Part shown: piece by piece, positions 2,386-55,970 of the stretch
Layout: each line of letters opens with the position of its first letter
Numbering within the stretch: the first letter of the stretch is position 1
From: an uncultured Gammaproteobacteria bacterium
GTDB taxonomy: Bacteria; Patescibacteriota; Patescibacteriia; UBA9934
DNA length: 64,000 nucleotides
NCBI GenBank assembly: GCA_964452565.1
Contig: CAYVLY010000001.1
Span: 451,053 to 515,052 of the forward strand
Reading direction: 5' to 3'
The notes under the pieces: generated by a model
The model's database searches: none
What the model was told of the DNA's origin: nothing
What the model saw: only the letters and a program-made list of their open reading frames with translations
Translations under genes and position numbers: made by a program

Positions 2386-2722
2386 GTGCTGCGTCAGCCA
2401 ATGACTTTACGCGGCCGTGGTACAAATAAGAACCTCGGTCAAAAACAACCTTTGTTACTCCTGCAGCTGTTGCCTTCTTTGCAACTTCAGCTCCAACAAG
2501 TGCTGCAATCTCAACTGGCTTTTTACCTTTAGCGTCAACATGTGAATCAGCAACAACTGCCAAAACCTTCCCAGTTTCATCGTTAATCACCTGTGCTGAG
2601 ATGTGCTTAAGAGATCGGAACACTGTTAATCGTGGTCGTTCTTGAGTACCTCGAATACGACTACGAGTTCGGTGTGCTCGTCGCAATTTCTTTTCTTGCT
2701 TTTTCTTAATTGGATCCTTCAT
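2363..2722 (-). CDS. rplR: 50S ribosomal protein L18
   Basis: 119 aa: RRAHRTRSRIRGTQERPRLTVFRSLKHISAQVINDETGKVLA...GRVKSLADAARENGLEF, the L18 family pattern. Confidence 0.9.
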   Translation of the reverse strand: MKDPIKKKQEKKLRRAHRTRSRIRGTQERPRLTVFRSLKHISAQVINDETGKVLAVVADSHVDAKGKKPVEIAALVGAEVAKKATAAGVTKVVFDRGSYLYHGRVKSLADAARENGLEF

Positions 2723-2725
2723 ATG

Positions 2726-3277
2726 CTATTCAGTCTTAGCCGCCTTACCAGCCTTTCGTCGAACAACTTCATCAGTGTATCGAAATCCTTTGCCCTTGTA
2801 AGGCTCTGGCTTTTTAAATGCTCGAATCTCGGCAGTTACTTGACCAACAAGCTGCTTATCGATTCCTGAAATGGTCAAAAGATTTCCATCAATTGTGGCT
2901 TCAATTCCTTCTGGCAAATCATATTCAATCTGATGAGAGAATCCAAGTCGCATCACAAGCTTCTTCCCTTTAACATCCATTCTGAAACCAACTCCATGCA
3001 ATTCTAGAGCTCGAGTCCAGCCCTGTGAAACTCCAAGGATCATGTTTGCGATGTTTGCTCGTGTAGTTCCCCAGATCGCGCTGTCTTGCTCCTTGTCGAC
3101 TGGAGTTGATATCACCTGATTCTCTGCGACCTCGATCTTTACTCGATTCGAGATCTGAGTCTTGAGCTCACCCTTTGGACCTTTTGCAGTTACCTCAAGA
3201 CCCTTAACATCTAGAGTAACGCCATCTGGAAGCTCAATAACCTTTTTTCCGATTCGTGACATATTAGAAGATTTCAC
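2726..3277 (-). CDS. rplF: 50S ribosomal protein L6; an alternative start is MSRIGKK at about 3262
   Basis: MSRIGKKVIELPDGVTLDVKGLEVTAKGPKGEL... with two L6 alpha-beta domains and the expected spc operon position. Confidence 0.9.
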   Translation of the reverse strand: MKSSNMSRIGKKVIELPDGVTLDVKGLEVTAKGPKGELKTQISNRVKIEVAENQVISTPVDKEQDSAIWGTTRANIANMILGVSQGWTRALELHGVGFRMDVKGKKLVMRLGFSHQIEYDLPEGIEATIDGNLLTISGIDKQLVGQVTAEIRAFKKPEPYKGKGFRYTDEVVRRKAGKAAKTE

Positions 3278-3656
3278 AAATTACTTCTCCACCAAGACGT
3301 CGCTTTCGCGCCTCATTGTTTGTCATTAACCCATTTGGTGTTGAAATGATAGCAATACCATGACCTGAGCGTACATATGGTAGCTCTTCTGTCTTTACAT
3401 ACACGCGTCGTCCTGGCTTACTAATACGCTTGATAGACTCAATATTTGATACTCCATCGTCGTACTTTAACTTAAGACGCAACACGGGGTGTTTAAGACC
3501 GTCTGTTCTTTCAACTCCCACAAGGTATCCTGCATTTTCCAATACCTTTGCAAGAGCGAATTTTACTTTTGACATTGGGACATCAACCGTTTGCTTTCGA
3601 ACCATTGAAGCATTACGGATACGTGTCAACATGTCTGAGATTGGATCTGTCATCAT
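3264..3656 (-). CDS. rpsH: 30S ribosomal protein S8; start taken at the MMTDPISD Met, not the upstream ORF start at 3692
   Basis: MTDPISDMLTRIRNASMVRKQTVDVPMSKVKFALAKVLENAGYL... is the S8 signature. The chosen start avoids overlap with the S14 stop at 3658. Confidence 0.9.
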   Translation of the reverse strand: MMTDPISDMLTRIRNASMVRKQTVDVPMSKVKFALAKVLENAGYLVGVERTDGLKHPVLRLKLKYDDGVSNIESIKRISKPGRRVYVKTEELPYVRSGHGIAIISTPNGLMTNNEARKRRLGGEVICEIF

Positions 3657-3657
3657 A

Positions 3658-3843
3658 TTACCAACTTGCTTTCTTAATTCCGGGAATCTCACCCTTGTTT
3701 GCTAGCTCTCTAAAACAAATACGACATAGGCCAAATGCGCGCATATATGCTCGGTTACGTCCGCAGCGCCAACATCGGTTCACGTGTCGAGACATGAACT
3801 TAGGTCGTTTTTGTGACTTTACAATTTGATTTCTTGTAGCCAT
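3658..3843 (-). CDS. rpsZ: 30S ribosomal protein S14, type Z (zinc-binding, 61 aa)
   Basis: 61 aa carrying a CxxC...CxxC pattern ([26 protein letters not shown]), typical of the short Zn-ribbon form of S14. Confidence 0.9.
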
Positions 3844-4393: not shown

Positions 4394-4717
4394 TTAATCT
4401 AAATCTTGTGTTCCCTTCTTTGTCTTGAGAACTCGTACTTTAACCTTTTTTCCGTTCTTATCAATAAACTTATATCCAACACGTCCTTCTGCATCTTTTC
4501 CTTGAATCTTAACATTTGATGCATGAATAGGAGCTGTGTATTCAACACGCTGACCTGGGGTATTACCACGCTTCTTAAGATGCTTTACAGATTTGTTTAT
4601 TCCCTCAACAACAACCTTGTCGAGCTTAGGAAAAACCTGCAACACCTTTCCGGTCTTACCCTTATCTTTGCCTGCGGTTACCCGCACCATGTCTCCAGTC
4701 TTAATCTTCATAAGCAT
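4394..4717 (-). CDS. rplX: 50S ribosomal protein L24
   Basis: MKIKTGDMVRVTAGKDKGKTGKVLQVFPKLDKVVVEGIN, a KOW motif as in L24. Confidence 0.9.
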   Translation of the reverse strand: MLMKIKTGDMVRVTAGKDKGKTGKVLQVFPKLDKVVVEGINKSVKHLKKRGNTPGQRVEYTAPIHASNVKIQGKDAEGRVGYKFIDKNGKKVKVRVLKTKKGTQDLD

Positions 4718-5088
4718 TACAATACCTCAGGAGCTAGAGAGATAATCTTCGGATATCCAAGTCCTCGCAATTCGCGTGGAACTGGTCCAAAGATACGTGT
4801 TCCCTTTGGCTCTTTTGTTTCTTTGTCTATGATAACTCCAGCGTTTTCATCAAATCGCACATAAGATCCATCTGCTCGTCGCATTTCCTTCTTAGTTCTT
4901 ACAATTACAACATGTACAATGTCACTTTTCTTAACATTGCTATGTGGAACAGCTTCTTTGACTACTGCTGTAACTACGTCACCAATACGTGCGTATCGCT
5001 TTTTGTATCCCCCAAGCACACGAATCACCATAAGCTTTTTAGCTCCAGTGTTATCAGCTACGTTAAATTTTGATAAATGCTGCAACAT
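4717..5088 (-). CDS. rplN: 50S ribosomal protein L14
   Basis: [27 protein letters not shown]...[11 protein letters not shown] matches L14. Confidence 0.92.
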
Positions 5089-5090
5089 AT

Positions 5091-5339
5091 CTACTTAATA
5101 TCAATAATTCTCCATGACTTATCCTTTGAAAGCGGTCTACACTCTTCGATGACAACCCTATCTCCCACCTTTGCTTTATTTTCCTCATCATGTGCCTTGT
5201 ATCGCTTGCTCTTGGTAAATCGTTTTAGGTACTTTGAGTGTAAAACAGTTCGGTCAATCTCAACAACAGCTGTCTTTTCCATTTTATCTGAGACAACTAC
5301 ACCTATTAATCGACGACGTTTTGATTGTTCCTTTTTCAT
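5091..5339 (-). CDS. rpsQ: 30S ribosomal protein S17
   Basis: 82 aa: [44 protein letters not shown], an S17 OB fold. Confidence 0.9.
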
Positions 5340-11856: not shown

Positions 11857-12240
11857 CTATTCTACTGGTTCTAGATAAAACTGCTCTTCTGCTGATTCTG
11901 GGTCAATTTCAGGTCCTTTTTCAGCAGTCAAACCCTCATTTTCCTGCACAACTGACTCAAGCTCCTCTGGCAGCTCTTCGAGATCTATATCAGATGCCTC
12001 TATTGAGAACTCATCAAGTGACTCTTCAGATTCGATCTCTCCGTCAAAACCCTCAAATTCCTCATCCACGAAGAACTCTTCAGACAGCCCACACTCTTCA
12101 TCGGAATACTCATCAATAAGCGCCTCATAACTGGAAAGTGGCAGAATCACCATTTCTTCCTGATTCTCATCCAAAACCACTACTGGAGAATTAGTCTTAC
12201 GCGCAATGCGCATTAGTCTGTTGAGCTGATTATTGTCCAT
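11857..12240 (-). CDS. Hypothetical highly acidic protein. The N-terminal roughly 45 aa resemble a Phd/YefM-type fold and are followed by a roughly 85-aa Asp/Glu-rich tail. The start is taken at MDNNQLNRL.
   Basis: MDNNQLNRLMRIARKTNSPVVVLDENQEEMVILPLSSYEALIDEY, then DEECGLSEEFFVDEEFEGFDGEIESEESLDEF.... No toxin-like partner was seen. Function unknown. Confidence 0.5.
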   Translation of the reverse strand: MDNNQLNRLMRIARKTNSPVVVLDENQEEMVILPLSSYEALIDEYSDEECGLSEEFFVDEEFEGFDGEIESEESLDEFSIEASDIDLEELPEELESVVQENEGLTAEKGPEIDPESAEEQFYLEPVE

Positions 12241-12355
12241 ATGTGCCAATGTTATCTTACTGGGACAAAAAAGCAAGAGTTTATATCATCATAAAAATCA
12301 TCCAGAAAAATTGACGCCCCCCGTGGGAGTTCCCAGGGAGGGCGTACAAACCGGG

Positions 12356-12598
12356 TCAGGCGATCGGTGGAGGTGTTCCGCTAGCAAGCATGGCTGAGAG
12401 CTCTGCAAGAGCTACCATATCACACATGCCACGAGGCAACTCCCAGGCATTTGGCTTTTTCCGATTCCTGTATCTTTTCCTATACAGACCCGTGGGGAGG
12501 CCAGGACAGTAGACTGGGGGCGGAATCCGAACCCCAAGCGGTGCCAAGCCGCCGGCACCGAAACTCACTTCGCGTATACACTGAACATCTACTTGCAT
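12356..12598 (-). CDS. Small basic protein (80 aa), paralog A of a two-member family in this window; conserved motif FGAGGLAPLGVRIPPPVYCP
   Basis: An AGGAG Shine-Dalgarno motif sits 6 nt before the ATG. The region is GC-rich (about 60%). The gene shares a 15-codon block with 46759..46989 in which 9 of 10 differing codons are synonymous. A GC hairpin plus T-run follows the stop at about 12300-12340. Confidence 0.55.
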   Translation of the reverse strand: MQVDVQCIREVSFGAGGLAPLGVRIPPPVYCPGLPTGLYRKRYRNRKKPNAWELPRGMCDMVALAELSAMLASGTPPPIA

Positions 12599-12912
12599 GA
12601 CAATCTCCTGTTATAGTGATTGTCCGTAAAAGCCCAAAGCTACGCGGACGCACCTGTTGTGGAGACACTCGCGTGTCCCGCACCCCTTACTCAACGCACT
12701 TTGCTGGTTTTCCACGCCAGCACCGCCTTACCGCCCGTTCCACCAGTACAGCACGGCGGCTTAGTGCACCCACTTTTACCCGGCAACGATATTCATTCTA
12801 TAGGCTCGCGTGCAATTTAAAAAATACATGTGTGGAAAACTAATAAAAAGTAAAGCACTCCGCATACGAGCGGAGCGCCGAGAGACAAGTCAGAGGAATA
12901 GCTTATGACCTG

Positions 12913-19518: not shown

Positions 19519-19790
19519 CAAAAAAACTTCCAAATTTGGAAGTGTTATTGCAGCTCCGGACGGTAGGACGAATTAGTCCTCTGCCACATGTGGGCTAAAC
19601 GATTTCAGGTGGCGCACAAGTGAGCCGGAGCCCAGTTGAACGGTCCCGAATCGCAGAGAACCGCTGGATCCCCGCATGCGCGCACTGCTTCATTGTGCGA
19701 ACAGCTAGACTGCGTAATCTCGCAGATGGTTCTTTCGAATCAGTGGATCCTTTCTTGTTGTAATTGGCTAATTACGTTCTACCGTCTTGA
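19519..19790 (-). ncRNA. Candidate roughly 270-nt non-coding transcript between ndk and murA, identity unknown
   Basis: On the minus strand a promoter reads TTGCAA (19823-19828), 18-nt spacer, TAATAT (19799-19804). An intrinsic terminator follows: the perfect palindrome cttccaaatttggaag (19527-19542) plus a T-run. The only ORF in between is a weak 32-aa one. Confidence 0.3.
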
Positions 19791-37258: not shown

Positions 37259-37440
37259 GGCGCAAGAATACGAAAATTAGGGAAAAATGTCAATCGACGG
37301 TCGCAATTGGTGTTGTTCCAGAGACCGTCGTCCTGAGCGACCGAGCGTTTACGCGAGGAGTGAAGGATCTCCAAAAACAAAGAACCCCCACTGCCGCAAG
37401 GACCGAGGGGGTCCAATGCGGGCGGGGGTGAGGTGGGTAG

Positions 37441-37941
37441 CTAGTCCCAGGCGGGATCGGGCTGGCCATCCGGGACGGTGAGGGTCATGCAGGCGGCCTC
37501 GAACGAACCCTCGGGGTACACAGGCTTGCTTGAGGGTTCGAGCTGGTCCTCGTGCTCACCATCGAGCCAGGCGTTCACGTCCGCATCCGAGTCCTCAAGG
37601 TCGGGGGTGAAGTCGGCCAGATTGTGCTCGAACTGCTCCGCGAAGCTTTCCACCTGGTAGAGGATGCCGAGCATATCCATCTCGACCTCAGCCACAGGCG
37701 TGCACAGAACGCAGAGGTGGATGTCACCATCCTCCCTGAAGCGGCGGAAGACCTTGTAGGCCGGGCCGATCGAGACACTCGGGTTCTGCACGTACTGGCC
37801 CACCTGGATCTGGCCGAGCGTATCCACGGTAACACCATCGTACACATCCCGTCCGAAGCGCCAGGCGTGCACGACCTCCGCATCAGACTCCTCGCTCGCA
37901 CGCAGCTCCACGATCACATTCTCGAACTTACGGATAGCCAT
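37441..37941 (-). CDS. Hypothetical acidic protein in a GC-rich cassette (166 aa)
   Basis: About 60% GC. It is driven by the conserved promoter-leader module at 38035-38103 shared with 60653..60982. Confidence 0.5.
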   Translation of the reverse strand: MAIRKFENVIVELRASEESDAEVVHAWRFGRDVYDGVTVDTLGQIQVGQYVQNPSVSIGPAYKVFRRFREDGDIHLCVLCTPVAEVEMDMLGILYQVESFAEQFEHNLADFTPDLEDSDADVNAWLDGEHEDQLEPSSKPVYPEGSFEAACMTLTVPDGQPDPAWD

Positions 37942-46654: not shown

Positions 46655-46758
46655 AACTTGAGTATAACAGACTAGCCTGAATTGGGTGAGATGTCAAGAA
46701 ATGCAAACCGCCTCCCATGAGGAGCATCCTCATTGGAAGGCGTGCAAGAAAGGCCGGG

Positions 46759-46989
46759 TCAGGCCACAGATATTACCCCAGATGGGACAACAACGAACAC
46801 GGTGCCAAGTCGCAAGATCCTGACTTTGCGTCGTCGCTTATAGCCCCTCCTGGGCTGTGGTCTTCTGTCACTGTAAGAGTCCCAGGCCGTGTGGCCATAA
46901 GTGGGACAGCTCATTGGTGGTGGGATTTGCACCCCAAGTGGTGCCAGACCTCCGGCGCCACAGTACTTCAGTGTTGCGAGTTGCGGCAT
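46759..46989 (-). CDS. Small basic protein (76 aa), paralog B of the GAGGLAPLGV-motif family
   Basis: GGAG sits 6 nt before the ATG and the gene is GC-rich. The protein MPQLATLKYCGAGGLAPLGVQIPPPMSCP... shares its core with 12356..12598 through synonymous changes. The conserved 3' end ctgacccgg includes the stop codon. Confidence 0.55.
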   Translation of the reverse strand: MPQLATLKYCGAGGLAPLGVQIPPPMSCPTYGHTAWDSYSDRRPQPRRGYKRRRKVRILRLGTVFVVVPSGVISVA

Positions 46990-47185
46990 TTTAGACTCCT
47001 TTGGGTTAGAAGTCCGAAATCGCTGACTCGGCGTTTTACCCCTTGTGTTTTAATTCCAGCATCTCTGCTAGAATCTGACCCGGTAACACTATCCATTATA
47101 TCGATGTATCTTGAACTCATAAAATAGATGTGTGGGTAGAAAAATGAAAAACAAAAAAACCTTAGGCAAAAACCTAGGGCTTTTT

Positions 47186-47203
47186 TGGTACACCGGGTGG
47201 GAC
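47186..47203 (-). repeat. 18-nt exact duplicate of the tRNA-Lys 3' end (tggtacaccgggtgggac), 147 nt downstream of the intact tRNA; looks like an att-site scar
   Basis: Identical to 47351-47368, with the same T-run flank. The intervening 147 nt are GC-rich. Confidence 0.7.
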
Positions 47204-47350
47204 GTCGGCCTTCGGCCTCCCAGCCTGCGTCGCTCGGAAATGCCCGAGCTCAGCTCGGTCACTTCTCTCGCTATCCTTAGCTGAACGAACCTGTACTGTG
47301 GGTTCTCGTCCTCCGCATCAAAAGAACCGCAGACGAATCTACGGTTCTTT

Positions 47351-47427
47351 TGGTACACCGGGTGGGACTCGAACCCACGACCCACTGATTAAGAGTCAGT
47401 TGCTCTAACCAACTGAGCTACCGGTGC
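47351..47427 (-). tRNA. tRNA-Lys (anticodon CTT)
   Basis: Manual fold: acceptor GCACCGG/CCGGTGT, D-stem GCTC/GAGC, anticodon stem ACTGA/TCAGT with loop CTCTTAA, T-arm GTGGG-TTCGAGT-CCCAC, discriminator A, and an encoded CCA. Confidence 0.85.
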
Positions 47428-54884: not shown

Positions 54885-55010
54885 AACTGTGTTCCGAGTT
54901 CTGTTTTCTGTATTCTGTAAATAAAGCACAATTCCCCGCGCCAGCCAGAGTGGCCGGGGCGGGGTTGAAGTGAGTTGTATCGCTGTTGATGTCTACAGCG
55001 ACTCGGCGTG

Positions 55011-55970
55011 CTATGCGGTCAGCCGACCTGAGCGGATGAGGTGTAGGAGCTGAAACCCTCGCTCACCAAGCAAGACGCCGCTGAGGTGCGGTAGTGCCCG
55101 TTCCAGATCTGATCCCTGCCGGCTGGCGTCATGCAGCCTAGCTTCGAGACGATCGCGACCATCTCCGAGCCTAGCAAGCGTCTTGGCTACATTGGGCACC
55201 AGCAGGAAGCTCGTACCAGCTGCCCGGAAAAGTCCCAGGTCAGTCTTGGGCGAATCACCAACACTAAGTACGCGCGGCAAAGGAATCTGCTGCTTTTGCG
55301 CCCAAAAAGCGAGCACATCCCCCTTGTTGAAGTCATGGACAACCGTTCTTGGCCAATAGCCAGAAATTTCATCGAGCCCATTCCAACTCAAGGACAACGC
55401 TCGTATGCTAAGCCGCCGATAATCTTCTGGCGTGAAAAAATGCCATGCCCACATTTCTATCGCATCCAAAAGCCCGTAGGAGGCAAACATGACCGGTTCT
55501 TCTGATGCATCCTGAGTAAGGAACGTCCTGAGGAATGTCTCAAGACCCAGACGGGGTGTGAAATCTTTGACAAGTTGCTGGAAGCTGATCTTGTCTACCT
55601 TGGCTGCAGCCAGACGGTCGACCGTGCGGAAGATCCAGTCCTCGAGCGCCTCCGGGCTATCGAACTCGCCGGCCAGATACTGACGCAGTTCGGCCAGATC
55701 AGCGTCCATGTCGACCTTGCTCATCAAGGCGCGAGTAGCGCCGAACGTCTGACCAGCATGAACCGTGCCGTCGAAGTCCAAGGCAGCGCCCTCGGCCTGC
55801 CTGACTCGCTCAAGCACCTGCTCAACCTCGGATCTCTCGAGATTCACAGCCAGAATATCTTCTTCCGGCCCAGCCCGCCCCATGAGATGGCGCAGCTCAT
55901 TGATACCTCTGAAACCAACAACCCGGAACGTATGACCATCATCCGTTTGAAAGGACATCCTGACCTCCAT
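55011..55970 (-). CDS. HAD-superfamily hydrolase-like protein in a GC-rich cassette
   Basis: ALDFDGTVH matches HAD motif I (DxDGT) and LSVGDSPKTDLG resembles motif IV. The gene is about 62% GC. Confidence 0.55.
   Translation of the reverse strand: MEVRMSFQTDDGHTFRVVGFRGINELRHLMGRAGPEEDILAVNLERSEVEQVLERVRQAEGAALDFDGTVHAGQTFGATRALMSKVDMDADLAELRQYLAGEFDSPEALEDWIFRTVDRLAAAKVDKISFQQLVKDFTPRLGLETFLRTFLTQDASEEPVMFASYGLLDAIEMWAWHFFTPEDYRRLSIRALSLSWNGLDEISGYWPRTVVHDFNKGDVLAFWAQKQQIPLPRVLSVGDSPKTDLGLFRAAGTSFLLVPNVAKTLARLGDGRDRLEARLHDASRQGSDLERALPHLSGVLLGERGFQLLHLIRSGRLTA

Follow-up and report, generated by a model that had tools for sequence, protein, structure and literature searches.

Messenger RNAs closed by a covarying clamp between their 5′ and 3′ ends are best known from the type I toxin mRNAs of Proteobacteria and Helicobacter. 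In the full-length aapA1 mRNA, a 5′–3′ long-distance interaction confers stability and blocks translation (PMC5416894). The Candidate Phyla Radiation (CPR, or Patescibacteria) comprises ultra-small bacteria with tiny genomes and a large share of unannotated genes, whose post-transcriptional control is hardly understood at all. Here we describe two small open reading frames (ORFs), A and B, on a 64,000-nucleotide (nt) stretch of DNA from an uncultured member of this group (GenBank assembly GCA_964452565.1, contig CAYVLY010000001.1, positions 451,053 to 515,052), which is called the window below. Sequence comparison makes it reasonably likely that A and B are paralogous subtypes of a lineage-restricted patescibacterial small-protein family, and that both the peptide and an mRNA clamped end to end are under selection.

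ORF A (80 aa, 12356..12598, A-type) and ORF B (76 aa, 46759..46989, B-type) were both found on the minus strand, where an initial annotation of the window had placed them. Their peptides matched each other with a BLASTP E-value of 8e-10. The core motif (GAGGLAPLGVRIPPPVYCP in ORF A) lay at 12559–12503 in A and at 46959–46903 in B, and the 15-codon block described earlier was reproduced, with ten codons changed between the two copies, nine of them synonymously and one from R to Q. In the window a 26-nt core pattern occurred at these two sites only, with 0 expected by chance, and a six-frame motif search likewise returned copies A and B only. Directly downstream of the transcription unit of ORF A (unit A) and upstream of tuf is a Phd-like gene (127 aa, 11857–12240, minus strand), whose closest relative was found on a 974-nt Logan contig (L083); the small ORF stood there too, in the orthologous place, as a third copy. 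A profile of the A, B and L083 peptides found seven more called proteins (P0006–P0012) and a metagenome locus, L089. The profile search that the initial annotation had suggested as a check thus recovered a family of about ten members, 70–90 aa long, in related Patescibacteria. Orthologs of ORF A were 53–65% identical to it. The B-type relatives of ORF B were L089 (tail ...WVRILGTSFIIAPDSIPNA) and L103/P0012.

The family is genuine but very narrow in distribution, since an exhaustive HMMER search over 1.84 billion representative proteins returned four cluster representatives of the family and one distant B-like match, P0015, and nothing more. ORF A as sole query against 5.8 billion proteins found itself only, and an exact scan of genome, metagenome and viral contigs with the 26-nt core pattern (22 specified bases) gave 0 matches. 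The elongation factor G (EF-G) of the window had a best identity of 81%, its nearest Patescibacteria being Uhr-, Falkow- and Kerfeldbacteria. When units A and B were compared by nhmmer and blastn with 80 fusA loci of related CPR genomes, each matched only itself; the family is therefore narrower than the EF-G neighbourhood. A distant blastn search of a phage collection and a viral protein-pattern scan gave no match to the family. In agreement with the annotation, which had not recognised the family, the small protein matched no family in Pfam, NCBIfam, PADLOC or PHROGs, and its best hit in a profile search of the PDB was not significant (E = 0.21). Rfam at gathering threshold returned two tRNAs only from the whole window, and in E-value mode only chance-level matches to units A and B.

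Several lines of evidence showed that the ORFs are conserved as protein. Frame 0 was free of stops in 10/10 members, while frames 1 and 2 held 1–5 stops each. The median pN/pS over 21 A-type pairs was 0.42 in frame and rose to 1.15 and 1.41 when the frame was shifted. Invariant core residues were encoded by two to four synonymous codons (Leu by TTG, CTG, TTA and CTC; Arg by CGG, CGA, CGC and CGT). ORF A and its L083 ortholog were identical at 38/72 residues, with synonymous sites saturated (pS 0.68) and a dN/dS of 0.23. A GGAG or GGAGG sequence stood 5–6 nt 5′ of the ATG in 8/9 complete units; the GGAG-type Shine–Dalgarno (SD) sequences annotated in the window were found at 12608–12605 (unit A) and 46999–46996 (unit B), each 6 nt from its ATG. 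The conserved block fell in no known non-coding RNA family of Rfam, and substitutions stayed codon-periodic in the relatives. These comparisons support the proposal that ORFs A and B are paralogous coding genes of an unrecognised family under purifying selection, which now extends to ten members.

The protein began with a variable N-terminus; behind it came an invariant proline-rich linear motif, a variable linker and a subtype-specific tail. The motif common to both subtypes was (C/F)GAGGLxPxGV(R/Q)IPPPxxCP, at residues 14–32 of 76–90. A basic, R/K-rich middle had been noted in A and B; across the family the linker is usually basic. A-type tails had the form ...AWE..AR.M.AL.ELS..FA.GTPPPIA (in ORF A ...AWEL...DMVALAELSAMLASGTPPPIA, its C-terminal helix region), and B-type tails (ORF B, L089 and L103) the form ...VRIL..GT.F...P(S/D), with ...KVRILRLGTVFVVVPSGVISVA in ORF B. 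AlphaFold2 predicted a single element in ORF A, an amphipathic helix at residues 53–73. The maximum 19-residue Kyte–Doolittle (KD) mean was 0.7–1.5 in 8/9 members and 1.96 in window copy B, at its C-terminal 19-mer. Two members departed from this layout. In L104 (279–560) an in-frame TAA was present and the conserved tail went on in frame behind it (...ALVGRFVILANGTIPSIA, then a stop), and in L102 (870–1130) the ORF stopped eight codons early. Most probably the small protein works through its linear motif, which would dock onto a partner.

Each gene looks like a stand-alone monocistronic unit with a promoter, a leader of 98–189 nt, a strong SD, the ORF and a terminator-like hairpin. Unit A, on the minus strand, began with a promoter region at 12795..12835 (CCACA at 12835–12831 and the –10-like TATAGAAT at 12802–12795), followed by a 189-nt leader at 12599..12787 that begins GUUGCCGGGU, and closed with a terminator-like hairpin (ACGCCCUCCCUGGGAACUCCCACGGGGGGCGU) and T-run at 12306..12345. 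In unit B, on the same strand, the promoter region was at 47095..47135 (CCACA at 47135–47131, TATAAT at 47100–47095), the 98-nt leader at 46990..47087 and the terminator-like hairpin (CGCCUUCCAAUGAGGAUGCUCCUCAUGGGAGGCG) with its U-rich tail at 46695..46742. The CCACA motif lay at a fixed 47–48 nt 5′ of the leader in 9/9 units, and a TATAnAAT-like box ended 7–8 nt 5′ of the leader, whose first base is the putative transcription start. With these elements, each gene looks like an independent transcription unit. Unit A was flanked by the terminator of the upstream gene on one side and by its own hairpin on the other. The start of the leader (GUURCCGGGU) was kept in the nine units and the remainder was without sequence conservation. 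The position of the terminator-like hairpin and part of its sequence (CCUCC...GGGA..UCCC...GGAGG) were kept across species, with compensatory changes. The GC content of the units was 0.51–0.61 against 0.46 for the window, in line with the GC-rich segments described before.

The initial annotation had also recorded that both ORFs end in a shared ctgacccgg containing the stop codon, and that its complement ccgggtcag recurs in the 5′ untranslated region of B. Both were present: CTGACCCGG spans the TGA stop at 12358–12350 (A) and 46762–46754 (B), its complement CCGGGTCAG stands at 47083–47075 in the unit B leader, and the unit A leader has CCGGGT at 12783–12778. This pair appears to be a helix that joins the two ends of the mRNA. 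In an alignment of nine sequences, leader nucleotides 4–11 could pair with nucleotides at or just past the stop codon to form an 8-bp helix. In unit A the 5′ strand was at 12784–12778 and the 3′ strand (ACCCGGU) at 12350..12356, its first base being the last base of the TGA; in unit B the 5′ strand (ACCGGGUCAG) was at 47084–47075 and the 3′ strand (CUGACCCGG), which includes the TGA, at 46754..46762. In the alignment 95.8% of cells were paired, compared with 19–50% when the partner was slid by 1–3 columns. Double changes were seen in 3/8 pairs, and one pair occurred as GC, GU, AU, UA and UG. The covariation score was 0.455 against 0.289 in shuffles and was equalled by 1/500 of them. The predicted ensemble probability of the helix was about 1 in 9/9 units (0.90–0.99 in unit A, 0.99–1.00 in unit B). 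In L102 and L103 the ORF closes at another stop codon and the 3′ strand is kept 13–17 nt beyond it, indicating that this strand is constrained independently of the ORF end. The occurrence of G-U pairs indicates a constraint on RNA and not on DNA inverted repeats. Taken from the alignment, the mRNA appears to be under structural selection, with its first ~10 nt pairing with ~8 nt at or after the stop codon, beside the base of the terminator hairpin.

Helices were also predicted within the coding sequence (CDS). In a hairpin formed by the 15-codon block itself (C GGU GCC GG / CU UGG CAC CG in unit A, 12539..12560, minus strand, codons F13–P20), third codon positions pair with one another and covary. 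In the ten members 88% of cells were paired, and the hairpin ranked first of 1100 candidate hairpins for pairing and covariation alike. RNAalifold predicted 58 pairs in six A-type CDSs. Sixteen of these had double changes, compared with 5.9 ± 2.1 (maximum 13) when whole codon columns were permuted, and the fold energy was –48.7 against –32.2 ± 3.6 under the same permutation (z = –4.6, 0/300). Over full transcripts, fold z-scores of –2.8 to –6.3 were obtained for 7/8 units scored, and for unit B against shuffles z = –7.0. In unit B a CUUC segment 5′ of the SD was predicted to pair with it completely (P unpaired 0.00 for the SD). A second local hairpin predicted for copy A, GGGG...CCCC, was rejected when its codons were checked by hand, as its third-position pairs were not kept across members. 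The CDS helices thus appear to be maintained by covarying synonymous sites. The codon periodicity of A and B had been read as arguing for a coding gene and against a structured RNA; the former stands and the latter does not, since the same transcripts carry covarying helices. The choice between coding and RNA was a false one, because the structure of the mRNA is conserved too.

In the most likely mechanism, the end clamp and the internal helices would make a compact, long-lived mRNA whose translation is throttled. The leader would often sequester the SD, and the clamp, stacked beside the terminator hairpin, would protect both ends of the mRNA. A ribosome terminating at the stop codon, with its footprint over the 3′ strand of the helix, would have to open the clamp, so that translation and end protection of the mRNA would be coupled. 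Such a mechanism would work like that of the hok and aapA1 toxin mRNAs. A bolder proposal, which we regard as speculative and rather doubtful, is that these transcripts represent a new class of "closed" CPR mRNA in which a small proline-rich protein and its elaborately folded, end-clamped transcript co-evolved as one functional unit. If so, the unit might be a toxin-like or stress switch, its clamp opened by the ribosome at the stop codon or by EF-P-dependent pausing at PPP, and the fate of the mRNA would be decided by that opening; alternatively, it might be an RNA–protein particle, with the basic peptide bound to the RNA that encodes it.

Several points weigh against joint selection on peptide and clamped mRNA. 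Because the 3′ strands of the end helix were chosen by eye, the figure of 95.8% of cells paired is inflated, and covariation was counted over no more than 6–10 related sequences. The fold of unit A was no better than that of shuffles (z = –1.0 to –1.6), and a clear pairing of the SD with a CUUC or CCUC segment 5′ of it was predicted in just 4/8 scored units. The low AlphaFold2 confidence (pLDDT 59 for ORF A) makes the picture of a disordered motif plus a helix a weak one. The premature stop of L104 and the short tail of L102 may mark decaying copies, assembly errors or a dispensable tail. Finally, where the transcript begins and ends, whether it is translated and what the clamp does were all inferred from sequence.

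The helices within the CDS bear also on a reading in which the transcript is mainly a regulatory or structural RNA that encodes a small protein as well, as SgrS/SgrT and RNAIII do. RNA structure conserved beyond coding constraint is what this reading predicts, and some synonymous sites were indeed invariant (GCC of AWE, CCG of PPP and GAG of ELS) in a unit with its own promoter and terminator on a GC-rich island of a 46% GC genome. We nevertheless consider it unlikely: no conserved single-stranded seed region was identified in the family, the leader sequences are not conserved, Rfam holds no matching family and the strongest conservation tracks codon periodicity.

A type I toxin–antitoxin system, in which the small ORF would be a toxin whose mRNA is silenced by the clamp and by SD sequestration while an antisense RNA neutralises the processed form, we hold to be quite unlikely. 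Membership in this class was not supported, because no conserved antisense promoter and no family-wide membrane helix was found and because the A-type locus is fixed and syntenic. On the opposite strand, no promoter-like site was seen at a conserved position in the nine units, though CPR promoters are poorly defined. The ORFs (70–90 aa) are longer than the aapA1 (30 aa) and Hok (~50 aa) toxins, and the members other than copy B have no stretch of membrane-helix grade (maximum KD 0.7–1.5); the hydrophobic C-terminal 19-mer of copy B (KD 1.96) is a feature that would suit a toxin of this kind, which usually has fewer than 60 aa and one transmembrane helix. The A-type gene is fixed at a syntenic site of the str operon region across species, unlike typical mobile toxin–antitoxin loci, and PADLOC gave no match. 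What the family shares with such systems is a stand-alone small ORF with its own promoter and terminator, a long-distance 5′–3′ pairing like that of hok and aapA1, an SD paired in several members of a highly structured mRNA (z down to –6.3), and a patchy, lineage-restricted distribution.

RAGP in SecM and RAPP in ApdA and ApdP are ribosome arrest motifs, and the invariant GV(R/Q)IPPP segment recalls them; we take the likeness as a lead only. The small protein might then be a regulatory arrest peptide, its RIPPP or PPP stalling ribosomes in an EF-P-dependent manner and so controlling the clamp, termination or a downstream gene. A-type members carry a second PPP three codons before the stop, and a pause at that site would place the ribosome over the 3′ strand of the clamp. 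This explanation is improbable, since the first motif is followed by some 45 further codons, which include the conserved subtype-specific tail, and B-type members have no terminal PPP. Moreover, the next gene has a promoter of its own and is set apart by a hairpin, and the downstream genes differ among A, B, L089 and L103.

Copy A lies between fusA (end 13666) and tuf (start 11688), in a gap of 1977 nt. From fusA to tuf, an arrangement of one or two variable small ORFs, then the family's small ORF and then the Phd-like gene was kept in at least six other species-level contigs (L083; L090–L093; L094–L097; L098–L100; L101; L102). The 2-kb interval reported to split fusA from tuf is thus real, but because this order is syntenic, copy A does not lie in a recent or mobile insert. 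A Phd-like gene of 111–137 aa with its own promoter stands directly 5′ of tuf across this CPR lineage (e.g. L005 8812–9162 and L085 10001–10336); its protein carries a weak Phd/YefM domain at the N-terminus and, in its long acidic tail, closes in EEQFYLEP(V/I)E. The A-type ORF was always immediately 5′ of this gene, with a hairpin and a separate promoter between them, while in the more distant relatives L005, L084 and L085 the Phd-like gene occurred 5′ of tuf without the small ORF. A role of the small protein as partner of the Phd-like neighbour is a less likely reading. The 209-aa membrane ORF 5′ of A was considered as a partner and rejected, as its conservation does not extend to L005 and the slot holds different ORFs in different species.

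Two further features were seen around fusA in relatives. In the Komeilibacteria-like L028 (8130–8410) and L050 (7440–7700), a common non-coding element of ~250 nt (...ggggagggaatc...cccttggaaa...gcctagccag...ctgactagacaaa) follows directly after fusA. This GC-rich element was considered as a relative of units A and B and proved unrelated to the small-protein family; Rfam gave no match to it. In many relatives (L006, L012, L013, L015, L017, L030, L031 and others) the EF-G tblastn span was 2.8–3.1 kb compared with the usual ~2.1 kb, which suggests an intein or other insertion within fusA in part of the lineage.

The B-type gene was directly downstream of tRNA-Lys(CTT) both in the window and in L103. 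The integration scar that had been noted beside copy B corresponded to a real 33-nt direct repeat (47171–47203 and 47336–47368; 88% identical, 165 nt apart), which copies the 3′ end of the tRNA-Lys gene and its downstream flank. The repeat would fit an old scar, left by integration or deletion, between tRNA-Lys and unit B. In L103 the same tRNA-Lys is followed by the B-type gene without the 33-nt repeat. In L089 the B-type gene sits after a 384-aa transposase-like ORF that has no Pfam match, with an HExxH protein on its other, downstream side (flanking genes 2525–3679 and 4567–5259). The HExxH counterpart in L103 (759–1304) was 87% identical to that of L089, and neither the transposase-like ORF nor the HExxH protein was found in the window. 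As to the mobile or cassette-like contexts that the initial annotation had proposed to look for in other genomes of the lineage, the A-type is syntenic, and a second B-type member also follows tRNA-Lys.

A mobile cassette or MITE-like element, whose complementary ends would be terminal inverted repeats of DNA at insertion sites, can draw on the complementary ends, the two copies in one genome, the duplicated tRNA-Lys end beside B, the transposase-like ORF beside the L089 member and the lack of unit A in the same slot of L005, L084 and L085, but it is effectively excluded: the end pairing is kept through G-U and U-G pairs that make sense in RNA only, the unit keeps its promoter and terminator although both stand outside the "repeats", the A-type is syntenic in at least six species and the B-type follows tRNA-Lys in two genomes, the phage collection and viral contigs gave no match, and no identical copies with target-site duplications were seen at unrelated sites. 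Equally, a purely non-coding structured RNA with an incidental ORF, to which the GC-richness, the strong fold of unit B (z = –7), the covarying helices and the lack of a confident AlphaFold2 fold might point, is effectively excluded by a frame open in 10/10 members with the others closed, by varied synonymous codons that carry amino-acid conservation, by a pN/pS of 0.42 in frame against >1 out of frame and by an SD and ATG conserved at the right spacing. A known non-coding RNA, first suggested by the GC island, the closing helix and the z-score of unit B, was rejected likewise, as Rfam was empty and the codon evidence shows a coding ORF.

Other GC-rich islands were present in the window. The ORF-poor island at 19531–19760 (GC 0.59) closes on the minus strand in a hairpin (cacttccaaatttggaag) followed by a T-run; its Rfam matches at E ≤ 1 were chance matches only, and it is a candidate small RNA or structured transcript. 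The islands at 37281–37480 (GC 0.65), which adjoins a 166-aa ORF at 37441–37941, and at 54901–55050 (GC 0.56) have little cover by long ORFs.

The gene described here stands outside every curated family and shows clear selection at two levels, that of the peptide and that of the mRNA fold. Should the clamp govern mRNA stability or translation, the principle of small-ORF mRNAs clamped at their ends would reach a very distant lineage. The 8-bp helix would then also offer a compact, mutable test system, in which disrupting and compensatory mutants could be compared. For genome scans, two cautions follow: codon periodicity and RNA covariation can coexist, and what looks like a non-coding RNA, a GC-rich island in an AT-richer genome, can be a structured mRNA instead.

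Compared with known systems, the family resembled SecM, ApdA and ApdP in having an invariant ...GVRIPPP... segment of ~20 residues conserved as amino acids. It differed from them in the setting of the motif, which does not close a short upstream ORF, lacks coupling to a downstream cistron and is followed by a conserved C-terminal domain. As in Phd/YefM type II toxin–antitoxin systems, the A-type ORF is immediately 5′ of a Phd-like gene, and the small protein is usually basic while the tail of the Phd-like protein is acidic. Unlike in those systems, each of the two genes has its own promoter and a hairpin separates them; the Phd-like gene is also found where the small ORF is missing, no Phd-like gene adjoins the B-type copies, and the small protein carries no Doc, YoeB or RelE signature. 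Like SgrS/SgrT, RNAIII/delta-haemolysin and SR1/SR1P, the units would be short structured transcripts with their own promoter and terminator and with selection on both RNA and peptide; unlike in these dual-function small RNAs, the ORF occupies most of the transcript, and Rfam has no family for it. The family differed from hok/Sok of plasmid R1 and aapA1/IsoA1 of Helicobacter pylori (PMC5416894) in its ORF of 70–90 aa, proline- and glycine-rich and mostly hydrophilic, where those encode a membrane peptide of 30–50 aa; no antisense promoter was found here, and the gene (in the A-type) keeps a fixed syntenic position in a core operon region. It was like them in its predicted monocistronic small-ORF transcript of ~250–450 nt, in the pairing of the extreme 5′ end with the 3′ end beside the terminator, in the compact structure of the mRNA and in an SD that is often sequestered. 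Thus, by likeness of architecture, the end-clamped type I toxin mRNAs appear to be the best analogy for units A and B.

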